Shown one piece after another: positions 2,396 through 58,019 of a stretch of DNA of 60,000 nt. Where the stretch lies: NCBI GenBank assembly GCA_965235115.1, contig OZ249436.1:36892001-36952000 (forward strand), in the 5' to 3' direction. The first letter of the stretch is position 1; each line of letters starts with the position of its first letter. The stretch comes from Laetmonice hystrix (lineage: Eukaryota). The translations under genes were made by a program, and so were the position numbers. The notes under the pieces are model-generated. The model saw nothing but the letters and a program-made list of their open reading frames with translations. It made no database searches and had not been told where the DNA came from.

Positions 2396-5300
2396 GAACA
2401 CAATTTTGCGCAAGATGATCCGTGTCAACCGTATAGTGACTTCAAGATGTTAGTGCTCAAGACTTGGACGTTGCACCACAAATATTGCCTTACTCCAGTG
2501 TATTTGGTGCAGTTCATGCAGCACCTCCCTGTCATTTCAAGAGTAACGAAAGATATGCAGAATCTCGGCTCCTTGCTCCTATCCGCACCCGTTATCAGAG
2601 CTCTACCGAGTCGGTGATGATCAGTCGGTCGTAGAATATTTTATATCGATCTGTCGCTTGACGTGCAAACGCACCGGAAGACAAGTAAAGGCGCTCATTG
2701 CTTATCCAATAGTACGTTTACAGTACGGAGAAATCTCACTTACCTCGGCGGCATACCTGGCGGAAATATTCTAAATTCTATTGACCACTATCGGGAGTAG
2801 TTATTGACCATGTTAACCATACTGGCTGTTCCATTGAAATTGCCTACTCCTGACAGTGGAATATTGGACTAAGAAGATTTCGCCCATGTAGGCATATGGC
2901 GCCGAGGTAACTGGGATTCTCCCGTATGGTGCGGGGACGTTTTGGTTCCGCATATCCCCTATCCCCTACGTTCTTCATCGCTATATTATATGCTACTGTA
3001 CTAGTCAGGTGTGCGAATTATGGAGAAGAAGTGGCATTTTTTCCTTTCATGAGGGCTGAGGCGCATTTGAGAGAAAACGGGGAATTTTTACGGCACAAGT
3101 CAGCCTGCTGTCAAATATAGTCCGGGCGTAGGTACTTCCCTTCCATAGCGCTATGGACTGGACCTGATCACACCCGAGCGATAATATATATCTTTCTTAC
3201 CTGACTTGTGCAGACCACCTGCGACATGATTACAAGATAAGGAGACTCGAGGGTGGATATGTGCAGGGTTCATCAATTTTTGTTGCAAAAGTTATGGAGA
3301 GATTCGACTGGGTGGGTGGGGGTGCGTATCCTGCTAGGGGCGTGTGGATGTATGAGTAGGCTGGCTATGTAGCGTGCATGGCTTCAGTATTGCTGCGTAT
3401 TTGTGACCACCTCTGTGTTTAGTTAACAGACATCTTTATGATTTACTTTGATAAAGCATATTTTAGTTATACTTCTGAAACGGGTACTACTTCAAATGAA
3501 ATGATTTTGTTATGTATTTATGGTAAAAATCGATTTCTATGCCGTTGAGAATTAATGAAGCAAAATAACGAAATGATTATTGATTCAGACAATTGTATGA
3601 ATAATTCTTCTCTATCGTGGGACAAATAGTCATGTTTTATGAAAAAAAAAAACTTTTCCCAGTGTCCATTAAAACATGCCTTCGCCGTCTGGGAATAGGA
3701 AACTGTATTAAATAAATCCCTTCGCAGTGATTGAAGACGACATGCCTTACATTGTAATGGGGAAAGTTGGAGTGTTGAGGTCCTCCTGATTGGTGACCTG
3801 CAGACACGAGCGGGACAGATGACATGCTCGGTGACCTAGGAGAGCCTCCAGGACCCAGTTCGGTGGAAGGAAACCGACGCAAACTTCCCCCGGAGACGGC
3901 GATGAAGGTCATTAGTAATGCAAGACTACATTGACAGCTCGACCACTCGAGTCGTTATTATCCTGGCCATGACATCCCTCGCTAAGAATCTGTGTTGAAA
4001 CACTCATCACTTTTTGGGTTCGTAGATAGATATTAGAAAAGTATGGACCAAATTGAACTTTTCCTGCATTCTGAGTTTACAATTGGCTGGTGTTGTGAGC
4101 CATCATACGTTGTTGCCATGATACCCTAAGATGTTGCAAAAGTAAGTGGACGCTGTTCCGAAGTTGCTGTTGGAGGCATCACCAATAAGATGCAGACAGA
4201 TTCATATTAAAAGTCATTTCTCAGAATTAAATAAATGTTTTCAGATTCAAACGTATAACTTCTATCCGGATTTTCGTCGACCTGTGTCGCCAGCGACTCC
4301 TGAAGTAAGCCTGGTGGATTGGCACGTGGACAGAACTATAGGTGATGTTGGAAGGGGTATGTCCTTCCAACATGTTTCCACAGTTCTATTTTAAAGACCT
4401 TGCTTACCTCTCCAATTTTAAAGCTCGAACAATTGCAGATGTTATCACGGAGATGCAAAGTGTTGGTTGTGCCATTTATATTCAGAACTTTAGTCTGAGA
4501 GGTAAACTGAATAGTTACTGAACGAGCTTCCTCATGTCCGTTTTCTATCATGCGTTATTTATTTAGAGGTATTTCACTACTGCTGCAAGTTCCTTTCAAT
4601 TTGTGCACTGGTATGGTCAATTCAACATCTAATTCCATGTCATTATTAGGAAGCCCCGATTAATCCTGCATCTTGATTTTAGTTAATAGGACCACTAGTG
4701 TCTCCACTTAAACCTAATCCGTATCCAATTAATTGGCACGCAAAGCTCCTTCTGGAGCATGTCAAGTAGCGCTTATACTTCGACTGTCATGTTGATCCGA
4801 GCGAATCCCAGTTGAGGAAAGTGCTTGACTTGTCCGATTACAGATAAGCCTATACAGAATACTGTAAATTTAAAGAATATTCAATTTTGTGGAAAGATGC
4901 AATCTGTCTTTGAAACTAAGACCGAAACGAAATCTACCATCTTCATTGTCTCAAGATTTTGGTTATCCGGTTCTGAGCTATAAGATCATTATTTTGTGTT
5001 AACACTTCAGAAATAGCGATGGAATGAAGACGCAGCCTCCTTCAAAACGTGTCGACCATCAGACCGCCGGCGTGCCAGCCATTTCGTCGGTGGCTGACTG
5101 CCTGAGGAGCCGAAGTCGGCAGCAATTGGTCAGTGGTTGAAGCACGCGCACACCGCCCATAATTACTGCCCTTTCAATGTAGTCTTGCTAAATGTACAGG
5201 ATCCGCAGGAATGGTGCCACTTCAAAGTTTCTTTTAGAGCTAGAATAAGCTTTCATCATGTCAACATCGTCCCGCCTCTATTTAATTGCGTTGGTGAATT

Positions 5301-24428: not shown

Positions 24429-25336
24429 TGTTACAACCGCTAATATAATAACGCCCACTATTGTAATAACTGGGGTGCTAGGGGGGTACCAGGGAAGTAC
24501 CACCAGAGTACCGGACAGGACCAGGGGAGCATTTTTGGGGTACCCTCTGAGTACCATCTGGGTACCCCCTGGGTACCCTCAGGTACCGATTTGGTCGGTA
24601 GCCCTTGAACAAAGTTTTATTACAATAGTGGTTGCGAATTCTGGCGAACGCTACCGCTATTGTAATAACTGGGGTGCTAGGGGGGTACCAGGGAAGTACC
24701 ACCAGAGTACCGGACAGGACCAGGGGAGCACTTTGGGGGTACTCCCTGAGTAGCACCGATCTGGTCGGTACCCTTTGAACAAAGTTTTATTACAATAGCG
24801 GTTGCGAATTCTGCCGAACGCAACCGCTATTGTAATAAAACTTTGTTCAAAGGGTACCGACCAGATCGGTACCTGAGGGTACCCAGGGGGTATCCAGATG
24901 GTACTCAGGGGGTACCCCCAAAGTGCTCCCCTGGTCCTGTCCGGTACTCTGGTGGTACTTCCCTGATACCCCCTAACACCCCAGTTATTACAATAGCGGT
25001 TGCGTTCGCCAGAATTCGCAACCGCTATTGTAATAAAACTTTGTTCAAGGGCTACCGACCAGATCGGTACCTGAGGGTACCCAGGGGGTACCCAGATGGT
25101 ACTTAGGGGGTACCTCCAAAATGCTCACCTTGTCCTGTCCGGTACTCCAGTAGTATTTTCCTGGTACCCCCCGGTTGGTACCCTCTGGGTACCCAGGGGG
25201 TACCCAGAGGGTACTCAGAGGGTACCCCAAAAATGCTCCCCTGGTCCTGTCCGGTACTCTGGTGGTACTTCCCTGGTACCCCCCTAGCACCCCAGTTATT
25301 ACAATAGTGGGCGTTATTACATTAGCGGTTGTAACA
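24429..25336. mobile_element. Fold-back element with TGT..ACA termini and 6-bp TSD GACCTG
   Basis: GACCTG|TGTTACAACCGCTAAT ... ATTAGCGGTTGTAACA|GACCTG; modular GGTACC-rich arms, central palindrome near 24811. Confidence 0.9.
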
Positions 25337-25629: not shown

Positions 25630-26944
25630 ACAGTGCGACACTGGCTGCGCTGCTGAAGCCAGTGATTTTCACACGGTTGTCATGTTCGACATATGACTTC
25701 TTTGAATGGGGGGGGGGGGGGGGGGTCATTTATTTCCAACCACTACTGTAAAAGGTGAGTATACATAGAGGCCTTGCAGTGGTCCAAATGTGATTTTTGA
25801 CTAGCCTTTGCCTTTAATGTAAAACAGCTGGCAAAGTTGCCGAAATATAACATTAAGACCAAACAATGAACTGGAAGGATTCCACTATGGAACATATTTC
25901 CCCCAGACCAGTGTCGTCGTAAAAGTAACAGAGCGAGGGAGTTTATATAAACATCTGCAGGTCAACAAACTACTAATTACTGGGTGTAACTCTCATTTGA
26001 ATATGGCCAACACAGTTGGATACCGTCGGGCGGAAACAAACAAACAAAACTATCCTTTACCGGCTGAAATACCCCCTAACTGAGTTTGTCTTTCTATTGA
26101 GCCGGCAAGACTCTACCTACCATACTGCTCATTTGGGACTGTTTTTTTTTCCTGTGGATGGGAAAGGTCGGTTGTTAGGAAGCCACTCCCCTTTAAGTCT
26201 TAAAGTAAAGTCTTTTGTGGAGATGGAACCTTTCATCTACCCTTAATAATTTAAATACATGCTCTCCCTCGTCGCGACTGTGGTAAATTCCTTCAGGAGA
26301 CCGATTGCTTTAAAGGCAAAGCCATATCATTTCACTTAAAAAGTTCTCAGTTTGCTGCAGATTTTGTGATTTCTTAGAAATGGAAATTCCAGGGAATGGT
26401 AACCATAAGTATAAATGATAAACGGGAATCCATATATCATATCTCTTAAAATATAGATTGAAACCATAAATATACTCTTTTGTGGTTGTGGTCGAGTATA
26501 AGCAAAATAGAGTCTGGCTGATCGACGCTATTTTTTAAAATTAATATTATTACATTTATTGACTGCAAAAGGGCGTGTCTGCTTTCCTTCCAGGGTTGGC
26601 AGCACTTCGGTCTCAATGCAGAACATATGATACGAGGGGATAAACTTGCGCAGAACACTGCACAAAGCCCATGATTGTCCAAGGAATCGGGAACCGTCAG
26701 GGGAAACACAATGCTATATTGATGTGTGGAAGCAACTTACGAATATTCTATATTAAATGAAGGCTGTCCTTCTTCTGTGAGTAACGTGCTGATCCTCGGC
26801 TGTCAACTTGTCAAGTTGTCAGCCTATGCCCTGCCATGGCTGGGAAAGTAAAGCTTACACCTTTTAGGATACACTGCGATTCTATTAATTAGGTCGGTTC
26901 GACATGTCGACTTAGCTACCGTAAACCTGCAGCAACGTGCTTAA

Positions 26945-27939
26945 AGCCCCAGTCCCATATACCCACGGATGGACACGGCAGTCCCGGAAAGTGCCGGATC
27001 CCGCCGGATCAAGATCCGGGACGATCCGTGCTCTTTTTGGGGGTTTTGAGCGGTGGCAACACGGCAGCTACACGGACGAACCCGTACAAACACGGACAAA
27101 CACGGCAGCAATCAACACGGCGCCCACACGGATGACCAAGGACCGTCCCGGACATTCACGGCAGAGCGACGGACTAACACGGACCAACACGGCAGAGACA
27201 CGGACAGCCCCGGATAAACACGGACTAACACGGCGTGTACACGAATCATCCCGGACCTACACGGCAGCGACACGGACCAACACGGTCCACCCCGGATGTT
27301 GCCATCTCCCCGGACCGTCACGGAAGAACACGACAGTTTTGAACTACCCAAAACTACGCGGCTACACGGTTCACACGCCGGATCGTGCCGGATGTGATCC
27401 GTGTTGATCCGGCACCTATATGGGACTGGGGCTAAATCCGGCGTGTGAACCGTGTAGCCGCTGTGTAGCTCCGCGGCGATCCCTGTTGGTCCTGAAACGT
27501 CCGGGAATGTCCTTGGGGCTCCGGGAGGCCAACACGGCAGTTTTGGGAAGTTCAAAACTGTCGTGTCCTTTCGTGACGGTCCGGGGAGATGGCAACATCC
27601 GGGGTCGACCGTGTTGGTCCGTGTCGCTGCCGTGTAGGTCCAGGATGGTCCGTGTACAGGCCGTGTTAGTCCGTGTTTATCCGGGGCTGTCCGTGTCTCT
27701 GCCGTGTTGGTCCGTGTTAGTCCGTCGTTCTGCCGGGACGGTCCTTGGTCATCCGTGTGGGCGCCGTGTTGATTGCTGCCGTGTTTGTCCGTGTTTGTAC
27801 GGGTTCGTCCGTGTAGCTGCCGTGTTGCCACCGCTCAAAAACCCCAAAAAGAGCACGGATGGTGCCGGATCTTGATCCGGCGGGATCCGGCACTTTCCGG
27901 GACTGCCGTGTCCATCCGTGCGTATATGGGACTGGGGCT
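26945..27939. mobile_element. Two inverted copies of a CACGG-rich Harbinger-like MITE forming a 1-kb palindrome
   Basis: TAA|AGCCCCAGTCCCATATA ... TATATGGGACTGGGGCT|TAA, plus an internal terminus ending at 27433. Confidence 0.85.
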
Positions 27940-27942
27940 TAA

Positions 27943-28842
27943 AGCCCCCGTCACACTTTCCCGGATCAAGCGACGGTTTGGAATGATCCGTAGCGCACGG
28001 CGATCCGGCAGCTTCCGTGACCTGGAAGGGCGATGGTGCGTGAAACTCCGTATCCAGAACGGGTTGATACGGGTTGACACGGCTTCAGTAGGGGTTACTA
28101 CGACATTGTTACGGGTTGAGAAGGATTGTTACGAATAGCTTCCCGGGGCTACTCCGTATAGGTACGGCTTACTATGGCTCACTACGGCTCTCTTACGGGT
28201 TGATGCGGTTCCACTACGGATTACTACGGGCTGTTACGTATCTCCGACGGGTTATTACGGATTGAACAGGTTGGGGTGCTCGCCAATATATAGGCGAGCG
28301 TCACCACATGACACACGCGTTGGCCACCTTGATTTGAAGCAGCCCGTAGCAAGCCATACCAACCCGTCACAATACGTAGGGTACCACCGTAGCACACCGT
28401 ATCAACCCGTAGTGGATACGTACCAATACTTTGTGTGATCCGTTCCTATACCTACCAATACTTACCTATACGTACCAACCCGGGAAGGATACCTAACAAC
28501 ACGTAGTGGATCCATCACCGATCACGTGATCACGGCTTACTAGGGAAACGCGAAGTGTCCACTTAGGGTTGCTACGTATCGTCTACGGGTTACTACTGGT
28601 CATCTACGGGTTGCTACGGATCCGCTACGGCGATTTTATCCGTGGTCGAAATCGAAAAAGTTTTGAACATGTTCAAAACTTTTCCACGGATCGAAAGACC
28701 GCTACGAATCGGTACGGGTTGCCACGGGTAGCTACGGAACATCCCGGATCACGCCGGATCGGACCACGGATCATGCCGGATGCGCCCGTAGCCCCGATCC
28801 GGCAAGACCCGGCGCGCGATCCGGGAAAGTGTGACGGGGGCT
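27943..28842. mobile_element. Harbinger-like MITE, 900 bp, TAA TSD
   Basis: TAA|AGCCCCCGTCACACTTTCCCGGATC ... GATCCGGGAAAGTGTGACGGGGGCT|TAA, 25-bp perfect TIR; TACGG-rich interior. Confidence 0.9.
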
Positions 28843-29291: not shown

Positions 29292-29598
29292 CGGAGCCCT
29301 GTTGGGGACATGAAGTCGTTATTACGAGTTAATCGCGTTCGTTTCAGAGAAAAAAGAATTGTGGTAATTTCGAAATTACCACCTAGTGACGTCATTAACT
29401 CGTTATTACGACTTAATGACGTCACTACGTCGTTATTACGAGTTAATCGCGTTCGTTTCAGAGAAAACAATTGTGGTGATTTCGAAATTACCACTTAGTG
29501 ACGTCATTAACTCGTTATTACGACTTAATGACGTCACTAAGTCGTAATTTCGAGATCACCACAAGAAATTTTCTCTTCATGTCCCCAACAGGGCTCCG
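29292..29598. mobile_element. MITE with 24-bp TIR, probable TA TSD and an internal tandem duplication of about 113 bp
   Basis: TA|CGGAGCCCTGTTGGGGACATGAAG ... CTTCATGTCCCCAACAGGGCTCCG|CA. Confidence 0.85.
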
Positions 29599-47508: not shown

Positions 47509-50357
47509 CATCTCGACATGATGTGCAAAACTGTATCGAAGTGGCCCCTGTAAGCCGAAGCATTTCTTTACGGTAGACGCTTGTCACATGCATTGGAGTA
47601 GAAGACTGTATGTTGACAACATTGACATGTTTCAGTAAAGGCCTACATTGAACAGGACTGGAAAGAAACCCAACTAGGTCAATGTCGCTCGCAGTACGTT
47701 CCGCCATTTTGAAAATAGAAGGAAATACGCCGCATATGAAATGTAAAAAGCAGGTTTTGAAAAACTCTTCTATGCACAAAATTCGGCGATATATCACGTC
47801 TTGTACGGCATTTCGGGTAAGGGTTATTTGGGCGAATTATCCTTAAGAGCATTCGGAGTTGTTATTGATCATTATTGCACCTATAAAGACATGCCGATGG
47901 GTATGAGGTCCGATACACCTCAGACATTTCTAAAGAAGACCAGTGTTTCGTTTTCTTTGTAGAATGTCATCTACCACGCGAGCGTCGGATATGTCAATCA
48001 AAATCGTCCGCACGCATCAAAAAACCGGAAGTGCGTTGGGTACGAGATTGAGGCAGCCTTCCGCCATTGCCAGCTGAATGACCGCTGCCAATGAATTCAT
48101 TCGATAAATCGTCTTCCATGGTGCTTTGTCCTTCATTGGTATGAACTCCATCTGTAACGTGGTTGGCCTTCAGAGGAAAGAGGGGGGGGGGGGGGGTTCT
48201 TGGTGCTTCGGTTACAAAATACTGAGCAGATTTTTCTCTGGCTCAGATCATCCTCGTGTCAAGCAAGTGGCAAATTACAAACGTTGTTTTGTTATAGCGT
48301 GTGGAATCATCCACGGACGTTTTACTGGCTGCGCCAATATTGTCAAACCACTGTGCAGCACGTAGATGAACAACGGTTAATCGTAATTAGAAGATATTCA
48401 CCTGCTCAACATGGATGCCATCGCAGACTGGCGTAACGTCAAAGGAATCAAACGTTGAATTAAGAAATGATATATCATTAAAGTTGTTTAGTAATAGCAT
48501 AAGGGATGTTACACACTTGATTGACTACGCTCCAGCTTTGATGTTGGTTTGATGATTGATTTATTGTCTCGTAACTAAAAGATAAATAACCATTACGGTA
48601 CAATACTGTGACAAGTAGATTTAGCTCTATACCATAATACATAGACTTTACCATATACTGCGGCGTGTACAATATCAGAGCTTATAATTAAAGCCCCACG
48701 CGGACTGATGGCTTCGCACGAGTTGGCAGCTGAATGCAAGCGTGAACTTATCTACCCAGTACTTCCAATATAACAGGGACGTAACCAGACTCCAGACCTA
48801 TGGCGCCGGGAGAAAGTAAAATTCAAATTAGTAATCTGAAAAAGTACCCTACCACATCGGAGATCTCGTTCCTGTTCTATCTGCATGTATAATTCAAGCT
48901 GACGTATAATGGCAATCATTGTTCCCATCTGAATATTGTGCTATTATTTTCTTTCTTGTATACAGTTCATCGATACACGATATCGTACGGCTGCACATAC
49001 CTTCAATCGGCGATTCTAGCTTGTGTTGCTGCATGACTTCAGGATCTAATATATTCGGGCAGACCTAGGCAGTAAGATAAACTTCCACTTTTCATAACCA
49101 TAATCTCATTGTTGTAATTACACATTTATTTAGGTCTTAATAATTTTAGATTCTCTTTGTAGACATTAAATGTGCTCGGCCAACTGTTAATGAGATATAG
49201 TTGCCCAATGAGGTTGGGCTCCCAGCAGTGAAAGGACTATTTTATAACATTACCATATTGCTATAACGTTGACATATAAAACCAACCCCTGAAAAAATAT
49301 CCTAAGGATATGGATAAACTATGGATAATTCGATAGATTATAATTATTACTGTGGTTGGGATTAAGTCTTCATGAGAGCCACAATAATCTTAGTTAATGA
49401 CTGTCTCCACTAGGATAGTGACAATTGCAGAGACACTAGCAACACTAAAACCATCTGTAGAGGGAACACCTTAGGGAAATTTCCACAAAATGGAGGTGTA
49501 CCTTAATGAACGGGTTGACATAATAATCACAATTATTGCAAATACTTGGGGGTTAACTAATTTTGATAATGTTAACTTGAATACTTGAAAGGAATACAGA
49601 AAGTGTCCGGTTGTTTCTTTAAATGGGGGCCAAACAATATAGTAAAGATTGGTTGGGGCTTGAGAATCCGTGGAGGTATGTAAAAAGGGTTACTGCATAG
49701 ACTCTATGTAGTGCATAATGATATCGTAGTAGTTGGCCTGCTGTTCATGTATCTGACATGTGTTACGACCGGATGTAGAACACATATTTATATTCGTTTT
49801 CTCCTTCATAATCCTCGAATTACTTGGATTTGATTACATTTATATGATTTTCTAGGGGCCTGCAGGAAGCTGGCGTAAGCTCATTGCACCTGCTTCGTCA
49901 ATGAACTGCTGACGTATAGATGCCCAAAGCTCATTTTTCATGTTTCTGTGGCGGATCTTCTTTTTTTGGACATTTTTATCAGATTCACCGCTCGTTTCTA
50001 GCAACCGGATGATTGTTCAGATCAACTTCCTAGCCGATAAAATAACAACAGACTTGGTTTTATCTATAGTGAGACTGAACAAGTTATGCTGTAAAGCAGG
50101 ACACAGAGGCTATTTCGGAAACATTATCCAAGCGGCTAGCCAGTCTTATTGGGCGGCCAAACAAATCAACAAACGGGGAAAGAAACATAGCCGCAAGATT
50201 ACTGCATCCATTCGCATATCAACGCCCATGCCCACTCGGCCACCGCCACTTCTATAAAAAGGAAGCTTTGGTGGTCGAGCAGGACAATGGACTGTCCCCC
50301 TACACACATCTTCCGAGATGAGACGGAATCCATGCTTTCCTAGATCGAGCTACATAT

Positions 50358-50419
50358 GAGTGAGAGTGAGTGAGTCAATAATTTATTGGAGGTTTTACGC
50401 CCTGTTGACAGTATTTCAG
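50358..50419 (-). mobile_element. SINE-like 3' tail
   Basis: GAGTGAGTGAGT..ATTGGAGGTTTTACGCCCTGTTGACAGTATTTCAG, nearly identical to the copy at 6687. Confidence 0.6.
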
Positions 50420-52541
50420 AACCTTTTAATCCCCATCTTCAAAACAATGGCAGGGGTGCTTGTATGCCCAGTCTCACAGACACGACTGAACATACCAAAG
50501 TCCAAGGGCCGATGAGAAAAATAGTACTGGAAGGATGAAAATCCATCTGTGCCATGCAGATGATTTTGTAATCCAACACTCGACCACTTCCCAACACTTC
50601 CCTCGCCCCATTTATCGCCTTTTACGAACAGCCAGGGGTTGAGCTGAGGATAATTTTTATCCCTAGTTCCCCAAAGGGGTGGCGATTCCGTGGCCGAGAT
50701 TATAAGTTGGATGATAATTTTTGTTTCGTGTATACAACCGCTTGCCTACAGCAAAAGGAACGAGAAGATCAATATTCTTATGTATCTGAAAAGGAACATT
50801 AGTCTGATGTTCGGAAATAGAAAGAACGAGTGTTACATTTGTCTGAGGAGGCAACTGAGATATCTTATCGGGCTTGCCTCTTTGCGAAAAGGTCTGCATG
50901 CGAAAAGACCTCAAATATCATTAGTTTGTGCGCATGTGTGTGAGATATTGTTGGATTGAACCTTCATTGGATATTGCGCTACCAAACATAAATTAGTCAC
51001 TAATAAATGAGAAACATGGCATGTTATTTGTGTTGCTTCACTTTTGAAACATCCTATAGTATTACTGTTATAGCACGACGCGTAACAATATGAGACATGG
51101 CACTGACGTAAAAAAAAGGAAATATTTCTGCTGCATCGTCATTAACATAAACAGTCTCATTTAGGCGTATTTCCCGAAGAAAGGACATGGAGTTGAACAA
51201 AAATCTATGCATTACTTAAATTGCAAGATTTCTTCGGTCAATCCAAAACTGAACTTCGAAATTAATGAATAATTTTTAAAGGGTTTCTTGCTATGTGCTG
51301 TCGTTTCAGATTGATCATTTCCAACGATTCGGCATCCAAAGTGGTTTTTTTTCGCGAGCAGGCGGCGCCTTGCATTCATGGCCCAAATTAATCATTTTTT
51401 TCAGAATCATAAATAAACTAATATAGTGATAGCTATAAGTCACTCTATATGGCATCTTTCATGAACGACTCGAGATTTATGTTTCCGATTGCCGAACATA
51501 ATAGAAACCAATGTGTGAAAAATCCAATATGCTGGTCACTGATAAGGTTTGCAGCACTCCTGTAATACATTAAATGTTCTGCTTTCCCCATGGATATCAG
51601 AGGCGCCATCTATTTTCTGGATATTGACAACCACTAATGGGCAATCATTCAAACAATAAATAAATAACAATAAAATGGGATTCATGTATGTAGTTTCCCA
51701 TCATTCATATTACCCTTAGATTACGGCTTTCTTAATCAAACTCTAGCTGGATTAGATAGTTTCAATATTCAAAGGATAGGAAGAGAGAGTGTAGGCTTAA
51801 AATGGTCTAAAGTTACCCTAACCTGAACGCGATATGTGGAATGAGGAAACATGTATTGAGTATTTGAAATAATACCACATCTACAATTCTATACTGCAAT
51901 AGTATATTTCGTCTCGTATGGCGTCATGCAGCGATCAGCCATAATTAGGTCATGTATATTGGATGCAGCTGGTATTAATTATTGGTCATTAATAAGTGGA
52001 GGCGGCTTTAAAATAAATGTTTATTGTATATGGTTGGGTAAAATAATAAAATACAAAAACCATGTCCAGGTGGACCGGGGTAAGAGGGCCATGATGGCAT
52101 TACAATGATAAAAGGGGATGGTATATTGGCCCATGATGGGTGTTAAAAGAAATCGTTGATGAGGCAGGAGTGGGCGGGTGGGAAAACGTCCGGGTCCCTC
52201 CGCAGTCAGTTCAGAATTGAAGTATTGGTGCCCGGATATCGGGCAGGTGACGTATGTGGGAGTGAGAGAGGAACGAGAGGGATTTAGGAACCGGGGCCCG
52301 ACTCCTGCCATAATGACCGGTAATCAAATAGTCATTTTATTACTCGCCTCATTAATAAGTGGAGGCGGCTTTAAAATAAATGTTTATTGTATATGGTTGG
52401 GTAAAATAATAAAATACAAAAACCATGTCCAGGTGGACCGGGGTAAGAGGGCCATGATGGCATTACAATGATAAAAGGGGATGGTATATTGGCCCATGAT
52501 GGGTGTTAAAAGAAATCGTTGATGAGGCCAAAACTTATTTA

Positions 52542-52984
52542 TTACATGGTCTTGATGGCCTTATGGGCGGAGGTGAGCTGGAAGTTGGCGGGGGTGAGGT
52601 AGGTGCAGACAGCACTCGACGCCCAAGTGCCATGGGCCATTATGTCTGGGAGGGCGGCTCCCCCAGTGTGGTGTGCATACGACGCTCTTCCCCGTCGAAG
52701 ACGTCTGAAGAGAGGGCGTCTGGAGCCGCCCCCCACGGCGCGGAGGAGGACGGCCCACTGTCGGGCGATGTGGTTGACTGGGATAGGGTTCCCATCCTGG
52801 AGACGGAGTAATGGGAGGCAGACCGAGGCCGGGGGGTCAGCCTTTATGAGATCCTCATAGGCGTAGCGTGGGCACAGCACCGATGTAGCCGTGTCCGGGA
52901 GCAGGATCACCTGTGGTTGTGAGGACTTCTGCATGTCTTAGTCCATTTGAGCAGGGGCAGCCCCGCCCGGGTCACCATGACGTC
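52542..52984 (-). pseudogene. C-terminal half of tyrosine recombinase, frameshifted
   Basis: LKWTKT / frameshift / MQ..VLCP..FRRLRRG (HxLRRG with His lost)..IMAHGTWASSAVCTYL (catalytic H/W and Y region). Confidence 0.85.
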
Positions 52985-54608
52985 ATTCTGCGTCGGCTGC
53001 GATGACCTTGCTGACCTTCACGTCTGGAATGATGTGCTTGCCATTGTAGTCCACTAGATATCTGCTGAACCACGAAAGGTCTGCCTGTGTGCTGGCATCT
53101 GCTTCTATAGGGCCGTCATGTGTTCGTCGTAGAGCTGCGAGCAGTCTGCCCATGAACGTACGGACCGGCCTGACCACCTTGGCCAGATGGTTGACTAGGC
53201 CAGCAACCGATTGCAGGTCATTCCGGGACAAAGTTTTTTGTTTTGATTTTTGGGCCAAAGAGTCTTTAATTTGGTTAAGCTTTTGTTGCGGTATTGAGAG
53301 AATATTGGCATCAAGGTCAATGTTAATGTCGAGCCATGTGATGTTACGAGCCGGTGGCTGAGCTTTGTTGGGGGCTGGCGTTAATCCCAGTGTTATGAGA
53401 AATTCGCAGATCTCAGTGTATTGTGCATTGGCCATTCTCCCACCTACTGAGATACATAAGCTGTCATCGAGGTAGATGCGAGCGGTGATGCCACGGATGG
53501 CCAGGGCTCTAACAATGAATTGTGATGCCGTTTGCATTACATAGCTAGACATTCTGGTCCCAAACGGGAGTGACCTGTCAAAATAGTATCCCTTGTTCGT
53601 GTGGATCACTAGGAGTGGCCAGTCTAGTGGACAAACGTTAAAGTGTCTGTACGCGCGTCGGAGATCCGTCACTGACAGGTATGCGCGTTGTCTGCCGATG
53701 GCAGTGATGATCTTGATGGCGTCATCTATGGTAGGGAGCGTATGCTCAACTGCTTGGCCGTTGAACCGATGTGATGTGATGTCCTTGTTGATGCCACCAT
53801 CAGCAAAGGAGAGGTCGACTTTTGTGCGGCGTTTTCCTTGTTCTGACTTCTCTTTCGTCATTAGTGGGCTTACAACACACCAGGGGGTGAACGGTGGCGT
53901 CGAATAGGAACCACCAATTGCCTGGTGGCCGACGTCCGTGTCCATGTAGTCGTGTACTTGTTTTGTGTACCGGTTAGCTGACGGATAGTTGTCCGGTTTG
54001 TAGTTGTACTTCGGAGAGCCATGAAATTGTAGGGAAAATCCATGTTTTATTCCGTTGATGACCATGAGGTCGTCTGGATGTCCCGTGCAGTTTTCCTCCC
54101 ATTTCTTTATGTTGAGGCATGTTGGTAATTCCAATTGAGCGCCAGCATAGTTGCGACATCCCCGAGCCTTGACTAGGTCATATATGTATGCCAGGTCGTG
54201 AGGTAAGTCTTTCGCGGGGAAGGGCCATTTGGAGAAGTCCGGGACTGCAGGGTGATCGTATGGGTCACCGTCAGCTGTAGGACTGTATGACGCATCTACC
54301 TCCCAAGGCCGATTGTCTTCGTGCTCTACTGGTGAGAGAGCCATGTATGGGTATCCGATGCGTTGCATGAACGCTGGGAGATTGTGATGTTCGATGTTGC
54401 TTTGCTTATGTGTAATGTTTGACCTCAGGGGGTCATGACGCGGGGTCATCGGGTGGCTGTCGTCTAACCGGTAGACTGCCAGGTGGGCGCTCACTTGTGT
54501 TGTGAGGTCCGTTTGTTGTGATTGGCTTGAGCCATTTTGTGCTGGCGCACTGTAGTTGACCTCATTGTAGCTGAGGCCCGCCTTGAGTCGGTTGTCGCCC
54601 GTTCTCAT
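52983..54608 (-). CDS. pol: Reverse transcriptase of the DIRS-order element, truncated at the start of RNase H
   Basis: 541-aa ORF: SPLMTKEK..VDLSF, DLRRAYRH..DWPLL, LPFGTRMS, IYLDD, SVAGLVNHLAKVV; ends VIAADAE. Confidence 0.92.
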   Translation of the reverse strand: MRTGDNRLKAGLSYNEVNYSAPAQNGSSQSQQTDLTTQVSAHLAVYRLDDSHPMTPRHDPLRSNITHKQSNIEHHNLPAFMQRIGYPYMALSPVEHEDNRPWEVDASYSPTADGDPYDHPAVPDFSKWPFPAKDLPHDLAYIYDLVKARGCRNYAGAQLELPTCLNIKKWEENCTGHPDDLMVINGIKHGFSLQFHGSPKYNYKPDNYPSANRYTKQVHDYMDTDVGHQAIGGSYSTPPFTPWCVVSPLMTKEKSEQGKRRTKVDLSFADGGINKDITSHRFNGQAVEHTLPTIDDAIKIITAIGRQRAYLSVTDLRRAYRHFNVCPLDWPLLVIHTNKGYYFDRSLPFGTRMSSYVMQTASQFIVRALAIRGITARIYLDDSLCISVGGRMANAQYTEICEFLITLGLTPAPNKAQPPARNITWLDINIDLDANILSIPQQKLNQIKDSLAQKSKQKTLSRNDLQSVAGLVNHLAKVVRPVRTFMGRLLAALRRTHDGPIEADASTQADLSWFSRYLVDYNGKHIIPDVKVSKVIAADAE

Positions 54609-54904
54609 TGATTGAGTGTTATTTTCGTGACTGTTTTCCCCGTATACTTGTTAGCCACAACGGTCTCCATAGCAGGTATGCTGGTTGGCGTCGGGGACCG
54701 CTGATGGGTGTGCTTTTGTTGACGGCAGATCAACCCCTGCGGCACACGCATCAGAACTGTTTGTGATCTCGGCGTCGGACCCGTTAACACTTGTATTTAT
54801 TAATTCGGGTGTATCGTCACCGTCATCCGTTGCAATTATCTGGAGGGTGTTTGACTTCGCCCCTACCCTTGGTAAGTATTCATTGGAGGGTAAGGGGTCA
54901 CTGC

Positions 54905-56218
54905 CTAGTTTTTTGGAGTCGATCGATTATTGTTGCCTGGGGCCTGGGCGTCTGACTTCTGCTGATGTAGTTCTTTTGATCGGGGCATCCGGTTGCTCAG
55001 CCACGTGTTGTTGATGTTTCCCCTTGCAATGGTGTTGATCTGGTGACCGTCAGTTATGTCGTCCACCTTATGAAGGAGTCGTTTCTTCTTGTTGCACAGT
55101 TTTGCTGGGTGCGAGTTTTCAGCCTTCAGCCCATACCAACATACGGCACATACATGTTTCATGGCCATGCCAGCCACCCGGTGCTCGTCCTCATGCCCAC
55201 AGCTTTCATCATTGTATTGAGGACATGGGGTCAATAATTGGGACGGCGCACAACCTTTGAGCCACGATGTGCGCATTCTCTCAGATGCAAATAGGTTGTG
55301 GTCAAACCACGTAGCTTCTCCTGACTTTACATAGTCAAAGCAATTGGAGGTCCATTCCTGCACACTCTGCCACACCAGCTGATCTGCGTCCTCTGCCACC
55401 TGGCCAAGATGATAGAGCATGGCCTGGGGTTCACTGCCATCGGGAACTACGTCAGTCAACATTCTGGCAAAGCCACAGACATATTGTTCAAATGACATTA
55501 CTTTGTTGCTGGCCTTGACCCTTTTTCGCATATCTGGGGGTAGACAGTCATATGGGCGTGAGATGCGAGCTCTGAATGACTTCCTACCTTTATGGTGTTC
55601 AGCTGGCCCGTACGCATTAGCCAGTGCTTCGTCCGCAGCGGCTCGTGCGTGCACATTGTTGGTAAGTCGGCGTGGCGATATTGTGGCGTCAGTTTCCTCG
55701 GACGTATATTCGAAAGAGTCTGTCCATGAGGGTGATTCAGACGGCCTTGTGCGGCGGCGGCGGGACGTAAGTTTCTTCTTTGTGTGCTGGGTGCGTCGTT
55801 GTATGCCGGTCCTCGGTGGGTGCGACGGGGGCCTGCTGTGGAGGCGGTCCGTGCTGTGGTCGTCGCTGTCCCTTCTACCATGTTGCCCCTGACTGGCGGG
55901 GCGGGACTGCTGCCCGGCCCGGTCGTGGTCGTCTCGGCTGACTCGACTTGTGGTTGCAAGATTTTCCATAATTTCTCCGAGGGTTTTTTCCATGCGGTGC
56001 ATGCGTTCGTCCATTTCCGCCTGTCGTTGCTGCGCTGCGGTTAGCTTCTTTGGGCGTTGAGCTGGTGTAGAAGGCACGTCGGAGTCGTTTGTCTGGTTCT
56101 GGGGCTCGTCATTTAGCTGGTCCTCTGGATCAGGTGACTCGGCTAATTGCACCGGCGGGTGGTGTGGCGTCGCTCTCGCCCTCGCTGCCCGGCGTTTTCG
56201 GGTTGACTTTGATGCCAT
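54905..56218 (-). CDS. gag: Gag-like ORF1 of the DIRS-order element
   Basis: 437 aa; low-complexity basic N-terminus, predicted coiled coil, Cys/His cluster CPQYN..C..H..HVCAVC..HPAKLC; lies between A1 and RT. Confidence 0.85.
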   Translation of the reverse strand: MASKSTRKRRAARARATPHHPPVQLAESPDPEDQLNDEPQNQTNDSDVPSTPAQRPKKLTAAQQRQAEMDERMHRMEKTLGEIMENLATTSRVSRDDHDRAGQQSRPASQGQHGRRDSDDHSTDRLHSRPPSHPPRTGIQRRTQHTKKKLTSRRRRTRPSESPSWTDSFEYTSEETDATISPRRLTNNVHARAAADEALANAYGPAEHHKGRKSFRARISRPYDCLPPDMRKRVKASNKVMSFEQYVCGFARMLTDVVPDGSEPQAMLYHLGQVAEDADQLVWQSVQEWTSNCFDYVKSGEATWFDHNLFASERMRTSWLKGCAPSQLLTPCPQYNDESCGHEDEHRVAGMAMKHVCAVCWYGLKAENSHPAKLCNKKKRLLHKVDDITDGHQINTIARGNINNTWLSNRMPRSKELHQQKSDAQAPGNNNRSTPKN

Positions 56219-56958
56219 GTCTTAGTCAATTATGTGGGTGACTGTAAATCTTCACGCTTTGTAAATGTCCATTTGAGTGTATCGCGTGAGCGTATGAGTA
56301 TGCAGTAGGCCTATGCGTGCTAAAATGCGAGTTAATAATCCTTATGGAGTCGGGAGTCCGTAAAAGAAAACGTCCGGGTCCCTCCGCAGTCAGTTCAGAA
56401 TTGAAGTATTGGTGCCCGGATATCGGGCAGGTGACGTATGTGGGCGTGAGAGAGGAACGAGAGGGATTTAGGAACCGGGGCCCGACTCCTGCCATAATGA
56501 CCGGTAATCAAATAGTCATTTTATTACTCGCCTAATTAATTATTGGTTCCAGCTAAAAAAAAATTCTAACAGTGTAATTATACCTCCGTATATCTTTCTT
56601 TCACGGGAAAGTTGGATTCTGAGTGTTTGTTGCAAGATGACTTTACATTTAGGAAGAACTTAATGTCTGGCAAACTTGTTGCTTCAAATTGAAGGAGAGT
56701 GCGCGGTAAGGCCTGCCGTCTCCCTTTGGGGTCAACTCCATGGGGAAAGGGGTAAGAATGATCGTCAGCTCCGTAACGGGGACATCAAAGGTATGTCCAG
56801 CCGTGTATGTCTGACTGGGAATAGACCCTTTGTTATCTTTCGAAAAGAGGATGGTTTGCCTCCCGGCGGAAGGTTTCTTTCTCAATTCATCATCATACAC
56901 TGCTCCAACGGACTCAGTCAACGTCCTTAAAACCACGCTCCCCCCACTTAGTTCCGCA

Positions 56959-57153
56959 CAAAGCTCCTTTTTTAGGGGAGTGGCGGTGGCCGAGTGGGCA
57001 TGGGTGTCGACACCTTATGCTATGCGAATGGGTGCAGTAATCTTGGCGCCGGGGTTCGATTCCTGTAGAGGACTATACAACTTTTCTCTTTAGGGACATT
57101 GTCAAAGTAATTGGGTTACCCCTGATGCCCGTGCATTTCAAAAGAAAAATACA
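56959..57153 (+). repeat. 195-bp unit with tRNA-like head, copy 1
   Basis: A box TGGCCGAGTGG 56987-56997, B box GGTTCGATTCC 57053-57063, TTTT shortly downstream. Confidence 0.75.
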
Positions 57154-57290: not shown

Positions 57291-57485
57291 CAAAGCTCCT
57301 TTTTTAGGGGAGTGGCGGTGGCCGAGTGGGCATGGGTATCGACACCTTATGCTATGCGAATGGGTGCAGTAATCTTGGGGCCGCGGTTCGATTCCTGTAG
57401 AGGACTATACAACTTTTCTCTTTAGGGACATTGTCAAAGTAATTGGGTTACCCCTGATGCCCGTGCATTTCAAAAGAAAAATACA
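57291..57485 (+). repeat. 195-bp unit with tRNA-like head, copy 2
   Basis: Near-identical direct repeat of 56959-57153 (about 3 substitutions). Confidence 0.8.
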
Positions 57486-58019
57486 CCTGTCCGATGTTGG
57501 AGCAGGTTGGAACTGCCGTATTATGAATAGTAACTACGTATACACCTGTCCGATGTTGGAGCAGGTTGGAACTGCCGTATATAATAAATAGTAACTACAC
57601 CTGTCCGATGTTGGAGCAGGTTAGAACTGCCGTATATAATGAATAGTAACTACACCTGTCCGATGTTGGAGCAGGTTAGAACTGCCGTATATAATGAATA
57701 GTAACTACACCTGTCCGATGTTGGAGCAGGTTAGAACTGCCGTATATAATTAATAGTAACTACACCTGTCCGATGTTGGAGCAGGTTAGAACTGCCGTAT
57801 ATAATGAATAGTAACTACACCTGTCCGATGTTGGAGCAGGTTAGAACTGCCGTATATAATGAATAGTAACTACACCTGTCCGATGTTGGAGCAGGTTGGA
57901 ACTGCCGTATATATAAATAGTAACTACACCTGTCCGATGTTGGAGCAGGTTGGAACTGCCGTATATATGAATAGTAACCACACCTGTCCGATGTTGGAGC
58001 AGGTTGGAACTGCCGTATG
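57482..58019. repeat. Minisatellite, 55-bp unit, about 10 copies, with an internal hairpin
   Basis: TACACCTGTCCGATGTTGGAGCAGGTTAGAACTGCCGTATATAATGAATAGTAAC. Confidence 0.95.

Follow-up and report, generated by a model that had tools for sequence, protein, structure and literature searches.

A non-autonomous Ngaro-type retrotransposon and its flanking 13-base repeat in Laetmonice hystrix

Structure and coding content of the element

The stretch of Laetmonice hystrix DNA studied here (contig OZ249436.1 of assembly GCA_965235115.1, positions 36,892,001 to 36,952,000; 60,000 nucleotides, hereafter the window) carries, at 51987–56533 on the minus strand, a non-autonomous 4547-bp tyrosine recombinase (YR) retrotransposon of Ngaro type, arranged as A1-gag-RT-(RNase H/YR deletion)-B1-A2-B2 (RT, reverse transcriptase) and flanked on both sides by the same 13 bases. 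An initial annotation had assigned the element to the YR retrotransposons, which its Ngaro layout and RT confirm, and had read the repeated 13 bases as a target duplication inside a symmetric target site. What lies at the locus is most likely a new non-autonomous member of the Ngaro elements beside a one-off local duplication of ordinary cause.

All parts of the element lie on the minus strand. Repeat A1 (56366–56533) forms the 5′ end, and downstream of it is a gag-like open reading frame (ORF) of 438 amino acids from stop to stop (54905–56221), the C-terminal part of which is Cys/His-rich; its assignment as gag is a putative one, made from its position and from weak tblastn matches with the first ORFs of two of 11 relatives (E = 4e-4 and 6e-3). 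The RT ORF (52983–54650, 555 amino acids) matches Pfam RVT_1 (E = 3.8e-8) and breaks off at the first RNase H motif; in full-length relatives the pol proteins continue beyond this point for about 150 amino acids before they too end. A C-terminal YR fragment follows at 52542–52937; it was recognized with a profile of 335 positions, built from the YR ORFs of 10 relatives and searched against three sequences, of which it covers positions 209–314 (E = 5e-8), but its HxxR motif is not intact and it gave no Pfam match. About 200 of the 335 YR profile positions and most of RNase H are missing from the window copy, a loss which the initial annotation overlooked. The region after RNase H in which a methyltransferase domain would lie falls in this deletion, and there is no room for a hydrolase ORF, which is an optional feature in Ngaro elements, between the YR stop at 52542 and the edge of B1 at 52528.

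The 3′ part is made up of repeats B1 (52350–52528), A2 (52182–52349) and B2 (51987–52165), the last forming the 3′ end. B1 and B2 are identical over 180 nt, counting a shared preceding T, and A2 pairs with A1 with one difference in 168 nt, giving one difference in 348 nt for both pairs; with so little divergence between the paired repeats, the insertion is young. The repeats are direct and split in the order A1...B1A2B2, with the internal pair downstream of the YR, and the Ngaro gene set is found in one orientation, the RT being clear, gag weak, and RNase H and YR present as remnants. The inverted terminal repeats and internal complementary region (ICR) of DIRS1-like elements were not found, and long inverted termini are absent from the element. 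Judged by these structural tests, the element is of Ngaro type.

The internal B1/A2 junction (52345–52367) reads CGCCT/CATTAATAAGTGG, where the slash marks the junction, and is the presumed site of recombination. It has the dyad symmetry expected of an att-type site, with 6-bp inverted arms (CGCCTC and GAGGCG) around an 11-nt spacer, and its hairpin is more stable than those of shuffled sequences (DNA z = -2.35 on the plus strand and -3.07 on the minus strand). The flanking 13-mer does not occur in it.

The flanking repeat

Positions 51974–51986 and 56535–56547 both read ATTAATTATTGGT on the plus strand, letter for letter, as the initial annotation had noted; no other exact copy occurs in the window on either strand, although three further places match with two mismatches. 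Random pairs of points shared a 13-mer in only 2 of 300,000 cases, so the repeat is not a product of chance. The left copy directly adjoins B2, which starts at 51987, whereas the right copy is set off from the end of A1 (56533) by a single extra A at 56534, so that only one of the two copies abuts the element. The flanks are better seen as two units of 14 bp, distinguished by their first base alone, the left consisting of the 13-mer with 51973, and the right of the extra A with the 13-mer (56534–56547).

Two candidate explanations of these flanks could be set aside. The 13-mer is not part of the element, because it is missing from the internal junction and because another copy, described below, has the unrelated sequence CAATACTTTC in its place. 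The outer 6-bp arms around the repeat, AGCTGG (51967–51972) and CCAGCT (56549–56554), which had led to the proposal of a symmetric site, do exist in the host DNA of the plus strand, but perfect 6-bp arms with an 8–25-nt spacer were found around 154 of 1489 background points (10%), and the arms are therefore at chance level. The 13-base repeat is real, yet it is not a clean insertion footprint.

The empty allele and the host site

Three public runs (X1, X2 and X3; one sample record, contigs only) hold the stretch, and what follows from them rests on the contigs listed, the assembler having dropped branches. In two of the three, X1 and X3, an empty allele was found in which 51973 is joined to 56538 through the seven letters TAAAACC. 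Its depth in X1 is 38.8; in X3 it is seen in one contig of 1471 nt with 774 nt of left flank and 331 nt of right flank and, because this one contig spans both flanks, it belongs to the same locus. The allele has a single copy of the 10-mer 56538–56547, lacking the leading ATT and preceded by the seven other letters, and so differs from the empty site that the initial annotation had reconstructed. Neither 13-mer is complete in the sampled allele, which rules it out as a carrier of both, although an unsampled allele may have them. When the element is excised at fixed ends, the window is left with 17 bases where the empty allele has 7, and the 17 repeat the adjacent flank.

In the sampled empty allele the host site forms a short palindrome. 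The last four inserted letters together with 56538–56540 are the reverse complement of 56542–56548, giving a hairpin with a 7-bp stem and a 1-nt loop, and stems of this kind overlap 14 of the 1489 background points (about 1%). Contigs with GTTACAACC before 56538 in X1 and X2 are one letter off the empty allele and probably come from other loci; comparison of these sequences suggests that the seven-letter form is ancestral. Together with a depth of 104–170 at 56555, within 56538–56577, they suggest that a dispersed repeat of low copy number ends in the palindromic site and the A run after it. Neither the palindromic site nor the element has a second copy within the window.

Compared with the window, the X3 empty haplotype has 22 substitutions over 1105 nt (2%) and three gaps; nine other letters also replace the 42 bases at 56578–56619, which is a second deletion combined with an insertion, 30 nt away from the site. 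In X1, the contigs beside the empty allele show two differences from the window in 1079 nt (99.8% identity), but may represent two alleles collapsed together, and about 32 depth units at 51918–51967 are not accounted for by the contigs listed. X2 shows no coverage of the left flank, which carries no weight as the records were filtered.

These contigs also bear on whether the second 13-mer is genuine, as it might have been made by a consensus or assembly error where the junction is heterozygous, or by a change after insertion such as conversion between the ends. The filled left junction is spanned by none of the contigs listed, and in X2 and X3 the depth immediately to its left is not raised, as this would predict. 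However, the contigs listed are partial and drop branches, the unexplained depth in X1 could be that of the filled allele, and the repeats of the window are otherwise clean; we regard an origin of this kind as very unlikely.

Likeness of the target to the element junction

The right flank matches the B side of the internal junction at 10 of 13 positions (background 2.2e-4), and both 14-bp units reach the same 10/13 in the same register. The letters that are certainly target-derived, taken from the empty allele, match at seven of nine (background 2.0e-3 per site, register choice uncorrected). Homology of the left flank to the A side was ruled out, only 2 of 13 positions matching. The likeness of target core and junction, to which the initial annotation had drawn attention, is thus real. 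It is, however, not new, and is expected under the published model for YR retrotransposons (PMC3266345, PMC7192593; these and the other published sources are cited for the parts available to us), in which DIRS1-like elements show a short, 3-bp match between junction and target and no duplication of the target (PMC3266345). The match here is longer, 7/9 to 10/13, but at one site only. AAT/ATT is the most frequent junction trinucleotide in DIRS1-like elements (PMC3266345), while the specificity of the YR is described in the available part of PMC7192593 as untested at the time, target choice and opening being largely untested.

The family and its other copies

The depth of the element body relative to its flank is about 9–11-fold in X1 and 13–15-fold in X3, and although such contig depth is not a true copy number, we read it as roughly ten copies, in a family of roughly 9–15. 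High-depth contigs run through the deletion point with no joint (52500–53827 in X1 and 52499–53434 in X2), and the loss of RNase H and YR must therefore be common to the main family, which by its sequence would be non-autonomous and in need of a partner in trans. Contigs of low depth (about 76–96) diverge near the YR remnant, with, for example, 22 differences and four gaps in 185 nt, and are about 86–88% alike near 52661–52845; they may represent a related family, a possible source of the missing enzymes and hence the autonomous partner. The window copy itself has seven differences from the high-depth contigs within 100 nt (54569–54667 and 56212–56307), far above the rate elsewhere, and beyond 56307 both X1 and X3 carry a different 5′ segment, observations that suggest mosaic subfamilies.

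The ends of the other copies are seen in two contigs. One from X3 carries the A end to 56535 and then an unrelated flank, CAATACTTTC, and one of 179 nt from X2 covers exactly 51987–52165, which together suggest fixed ends at CGCCT/CATTAAT. The two right flanks are alike only in an AA and in AT richness, and the contigs listed include no other copy for which both flanks are present.

These observations can be set against the proposal that duplication is a rule of the family, arising from staggered cuts that leave target duplications of 10–14 bp, possibly where a dispersed host repeat offers palindromic, att-like sites. The exact repeat is far beyond chance, the hairpin type of the empty site overlaps only about 1% of background points (14/1489), and the site probably lies in a low-copy repeat, to judge from the GTTACAACC contigs in X1 and X2 and the depth of 104–170 at 56555. 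Yet such a rule would require a separate change of seven to three bases on the window haplotype as well as a stray base, the sole other right flank is unlike the window target, and the outer arms are no more frequent than by chance (10%). When a YR exchanges strands, no gap is filled in. The published YR models include no target duplication (PMC3266345, PMC13465315). The proposal in the initial annotation that the 13-bp duplication in a symmetric site reflects the family's mechanism is thus unsupported: the empty allele differs, the arms are unremarkable and another copy's flank is unrelated. We consider such a rule unlikely, and take the same view of its fullest form, in which a Ngaro recombinase recognizes about 13 bp of att-like sequence resembling the element's symmetric junction, homes to a palindromic repeat, routinely duplicates 10–14 bp and is spread by copies that lack RNase H and YR but keep gag and RT. 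Long duplications left as a rule would, if true, be at odds with the accepted YR model.

Origin of the duplication

The explanation that we favour, tentatively and at somewhat less than even chances, is that repair at the palindrome made a tandem repeat of 14 bp, which was later split by an ordinary YR insertion without target duplication. End joining on the window's haplotype would have swapped the seven bases of the palindromic site for 17 templated from the right flank, giving two 14-bp units, each of which matches the symmetric internal junction at 10 of 13 positions. The element, copied via RNA and rejoined at its junction, would then have been opened at CGCCT/CATTAAT by a YR acting in trans and would have entered where the second unit begins, leaving one unit on each side and with them an apparent 13-bp duplication and a stray A. 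The stray A at 56534 is explained here by the 14-bp period and by the 10/13 match of both units. End joining is known to produce templated insertions in which nearby sequence is repeated (PMC2943611). Both ends of the element fall at one junction bond, B2 beginning at 51987 and A1 equalling A2 up to 56533, and the unrelated right flank of the other copy also counts in favour of this explanation. There was time for the host change before insertion, because the X3 empty haplotype has diverged by 2% and carries its three gaps and the second deletion-with-insertion, compared with one difference in 348 nt in the element repeats. The initial annotation had also considered a route other than the YR: break repair does fit, though more probably as repair of the host site, while a borrowed endonuclease is less likely.

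Several points weigh against this sequence of events. The tandem allele that it places before the insertion is absent from all three runs among the contigs listed, and the fixed opening point is deduced from a single contig start and a single loose end, in data from which the assembler removes branches; an X1 contig runs across the internal junction without a break. The circular intermediate and the partner YR are both presumed. If, moreover, the near-identical flanks in X1 are one real haplotype, little time would be left for an earlier repair, and an explanation in one step would gain.

Such an explanation is a single messy event, in which the right junction was made by the YR, or at a palindrome break, at a single-copy site, and the left 13-mer by templated repair, specific to the window copy. 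The left end would have been trimmed by seven bases, and repair of the polymerase-theta type would have copied 13 from the new right junction and annealed through one shared T. The observed empty allele then suffices as the starting point, the target-only letters already match the junction at seven of nine (at the background given above, register choice uncorrected), and the right junction is one base off a crossover at a shared AAT, which, with ATT, is the commonest junction trinucleotide in DIRS1-like elements (PMC3266345). The 99.8% identity of the X1 flanks to the window agrees with it too, unless alleles are mixed there, as does the report that DIRS-1 cDNA is mostly linear (PMC7192593). 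Against this, the right end would need a further change, either a single substitution or a slip of 4 nt, and the precision of both ends, to one bond, fits recombination better than end joining. The right flank of the other copy also lacks CATT after the A end, although base 56534 is unread in that contig. We hold the single event to be a possible but doubtful account.

On present evidence, the main lesson of the site is that reconstructing a duplication from a single filled allele can lead to error. This young family has about ten near-identical copies and an empty allele that is segregating, and in it YR target preference could be measured directly by aligning flanks.

Relation to known systems

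Like the Ngaro elements of Cafeteria, types 1–4 (PMC8547959), and the layout given in PMC4157794, the window element is arranged as A1...B1A2B2. Deletion variants of the Cafeteria elements lack ORF1 (PMC8547959), whereas the family described here instead lacks most of RNase H and YR. Ngaro-like families of Xenopus have a hydrolase ORF (PMC9210276); none fits in the window copy, but distant relatives have it. DIRS1-like elements likewise contain an internal copy of their end-to-end junction and combine a short target match with no duplication (PMC3266345, PMC7192593), but DIRS1 has inverted termini, the ICR and a methyltransferase domain, where the window element has direct repeats.

In Cryptons and Starships (PMC13465315; bioRxiv 10.1101/2022.05.23.493040), flanking repeats once called duplications are now attributed to homology between donor and target. 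These are, however, DNA transposons with repeats of 4–6 bp, one copy of which is derived from the element, whereas the window 13-mer is absent from the element junction. In templated end joining (PMC2943611), deletion is accompanied by an insertion that repeats adjacent sequence, as in the window, although it was shown at induced breaks in Drosophila and would here be read from one junction. In titles and the openings of abstracts we found nothing about long duplications of the target in Ngaro or PAT elements, a search that may miss published target data, and the available parts of PMC8547959 and PMC9210276 give no account of flanking duplications in Ngaro.

Relatives of the RT numbered 94 among 4161 candidates, the closest full-length one being 51–52% identical and one partial match 74%. 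Scans with an RT profile located 35 loci in metagenome contigs and six in genome contigs, at 24–36% identity, and no relatives in viral contigs, and an exact search of metagenome contigs for 33 nt of the element B end gave no matches. When the 41 relatives' loci were compared with themselves and five were inspected, none had both ends and both flanks, the contigs being too short or collapsed. A hydrolase ORF was present in all three of the ORFs tested from relatives 24–29% identical in RT, and no Pfam methyltransferase (E<=0.05) was found in the pol proteins of the seven relatives scanned, although Pfam may miss the domain, which in pol marks the PAT-like elements, whose repeats are also split. 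Six contigs in bacterial metagenome-assembled genomes (L036–L041) encode RT relatives, some with YR and hydrolase ORFs, and are most likely host DNA binned into those genomes; in one of them (L038:85–7211) the layout is tandem or rearranged, with a 455-nt repeat present three times and a 1040-nt repeat twice.

Neighbouring features

Scans of the window with ARAGORN and Rfam gave no matches. Three copies of one repeat lie near the element, at 56959–57153, at 57291–57485 and, inverted, at 50173–50359; neither program made a call on them, but they contain motifs like the A and B boxes, and we take them to be, probably, a tRNA-derived short interspersed nuclear element (SINE). The depth just upstream of this SINE-like repeat (56768–56950) is 3700–5100. 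A 55-bp tandem array of 9.7 copies, with 96% matches, occupies 57482–58018. Further away, at 26939–27945, 24429–25336 and 29292–29598, are elements of foldback type or resembling miniature inverted-repeat transposable elements, a set that includes arms of about 415 nt (94–98%, in 10-bp units), a palindromic array of 11-bp units and perfect terminal arms of 24 bp.

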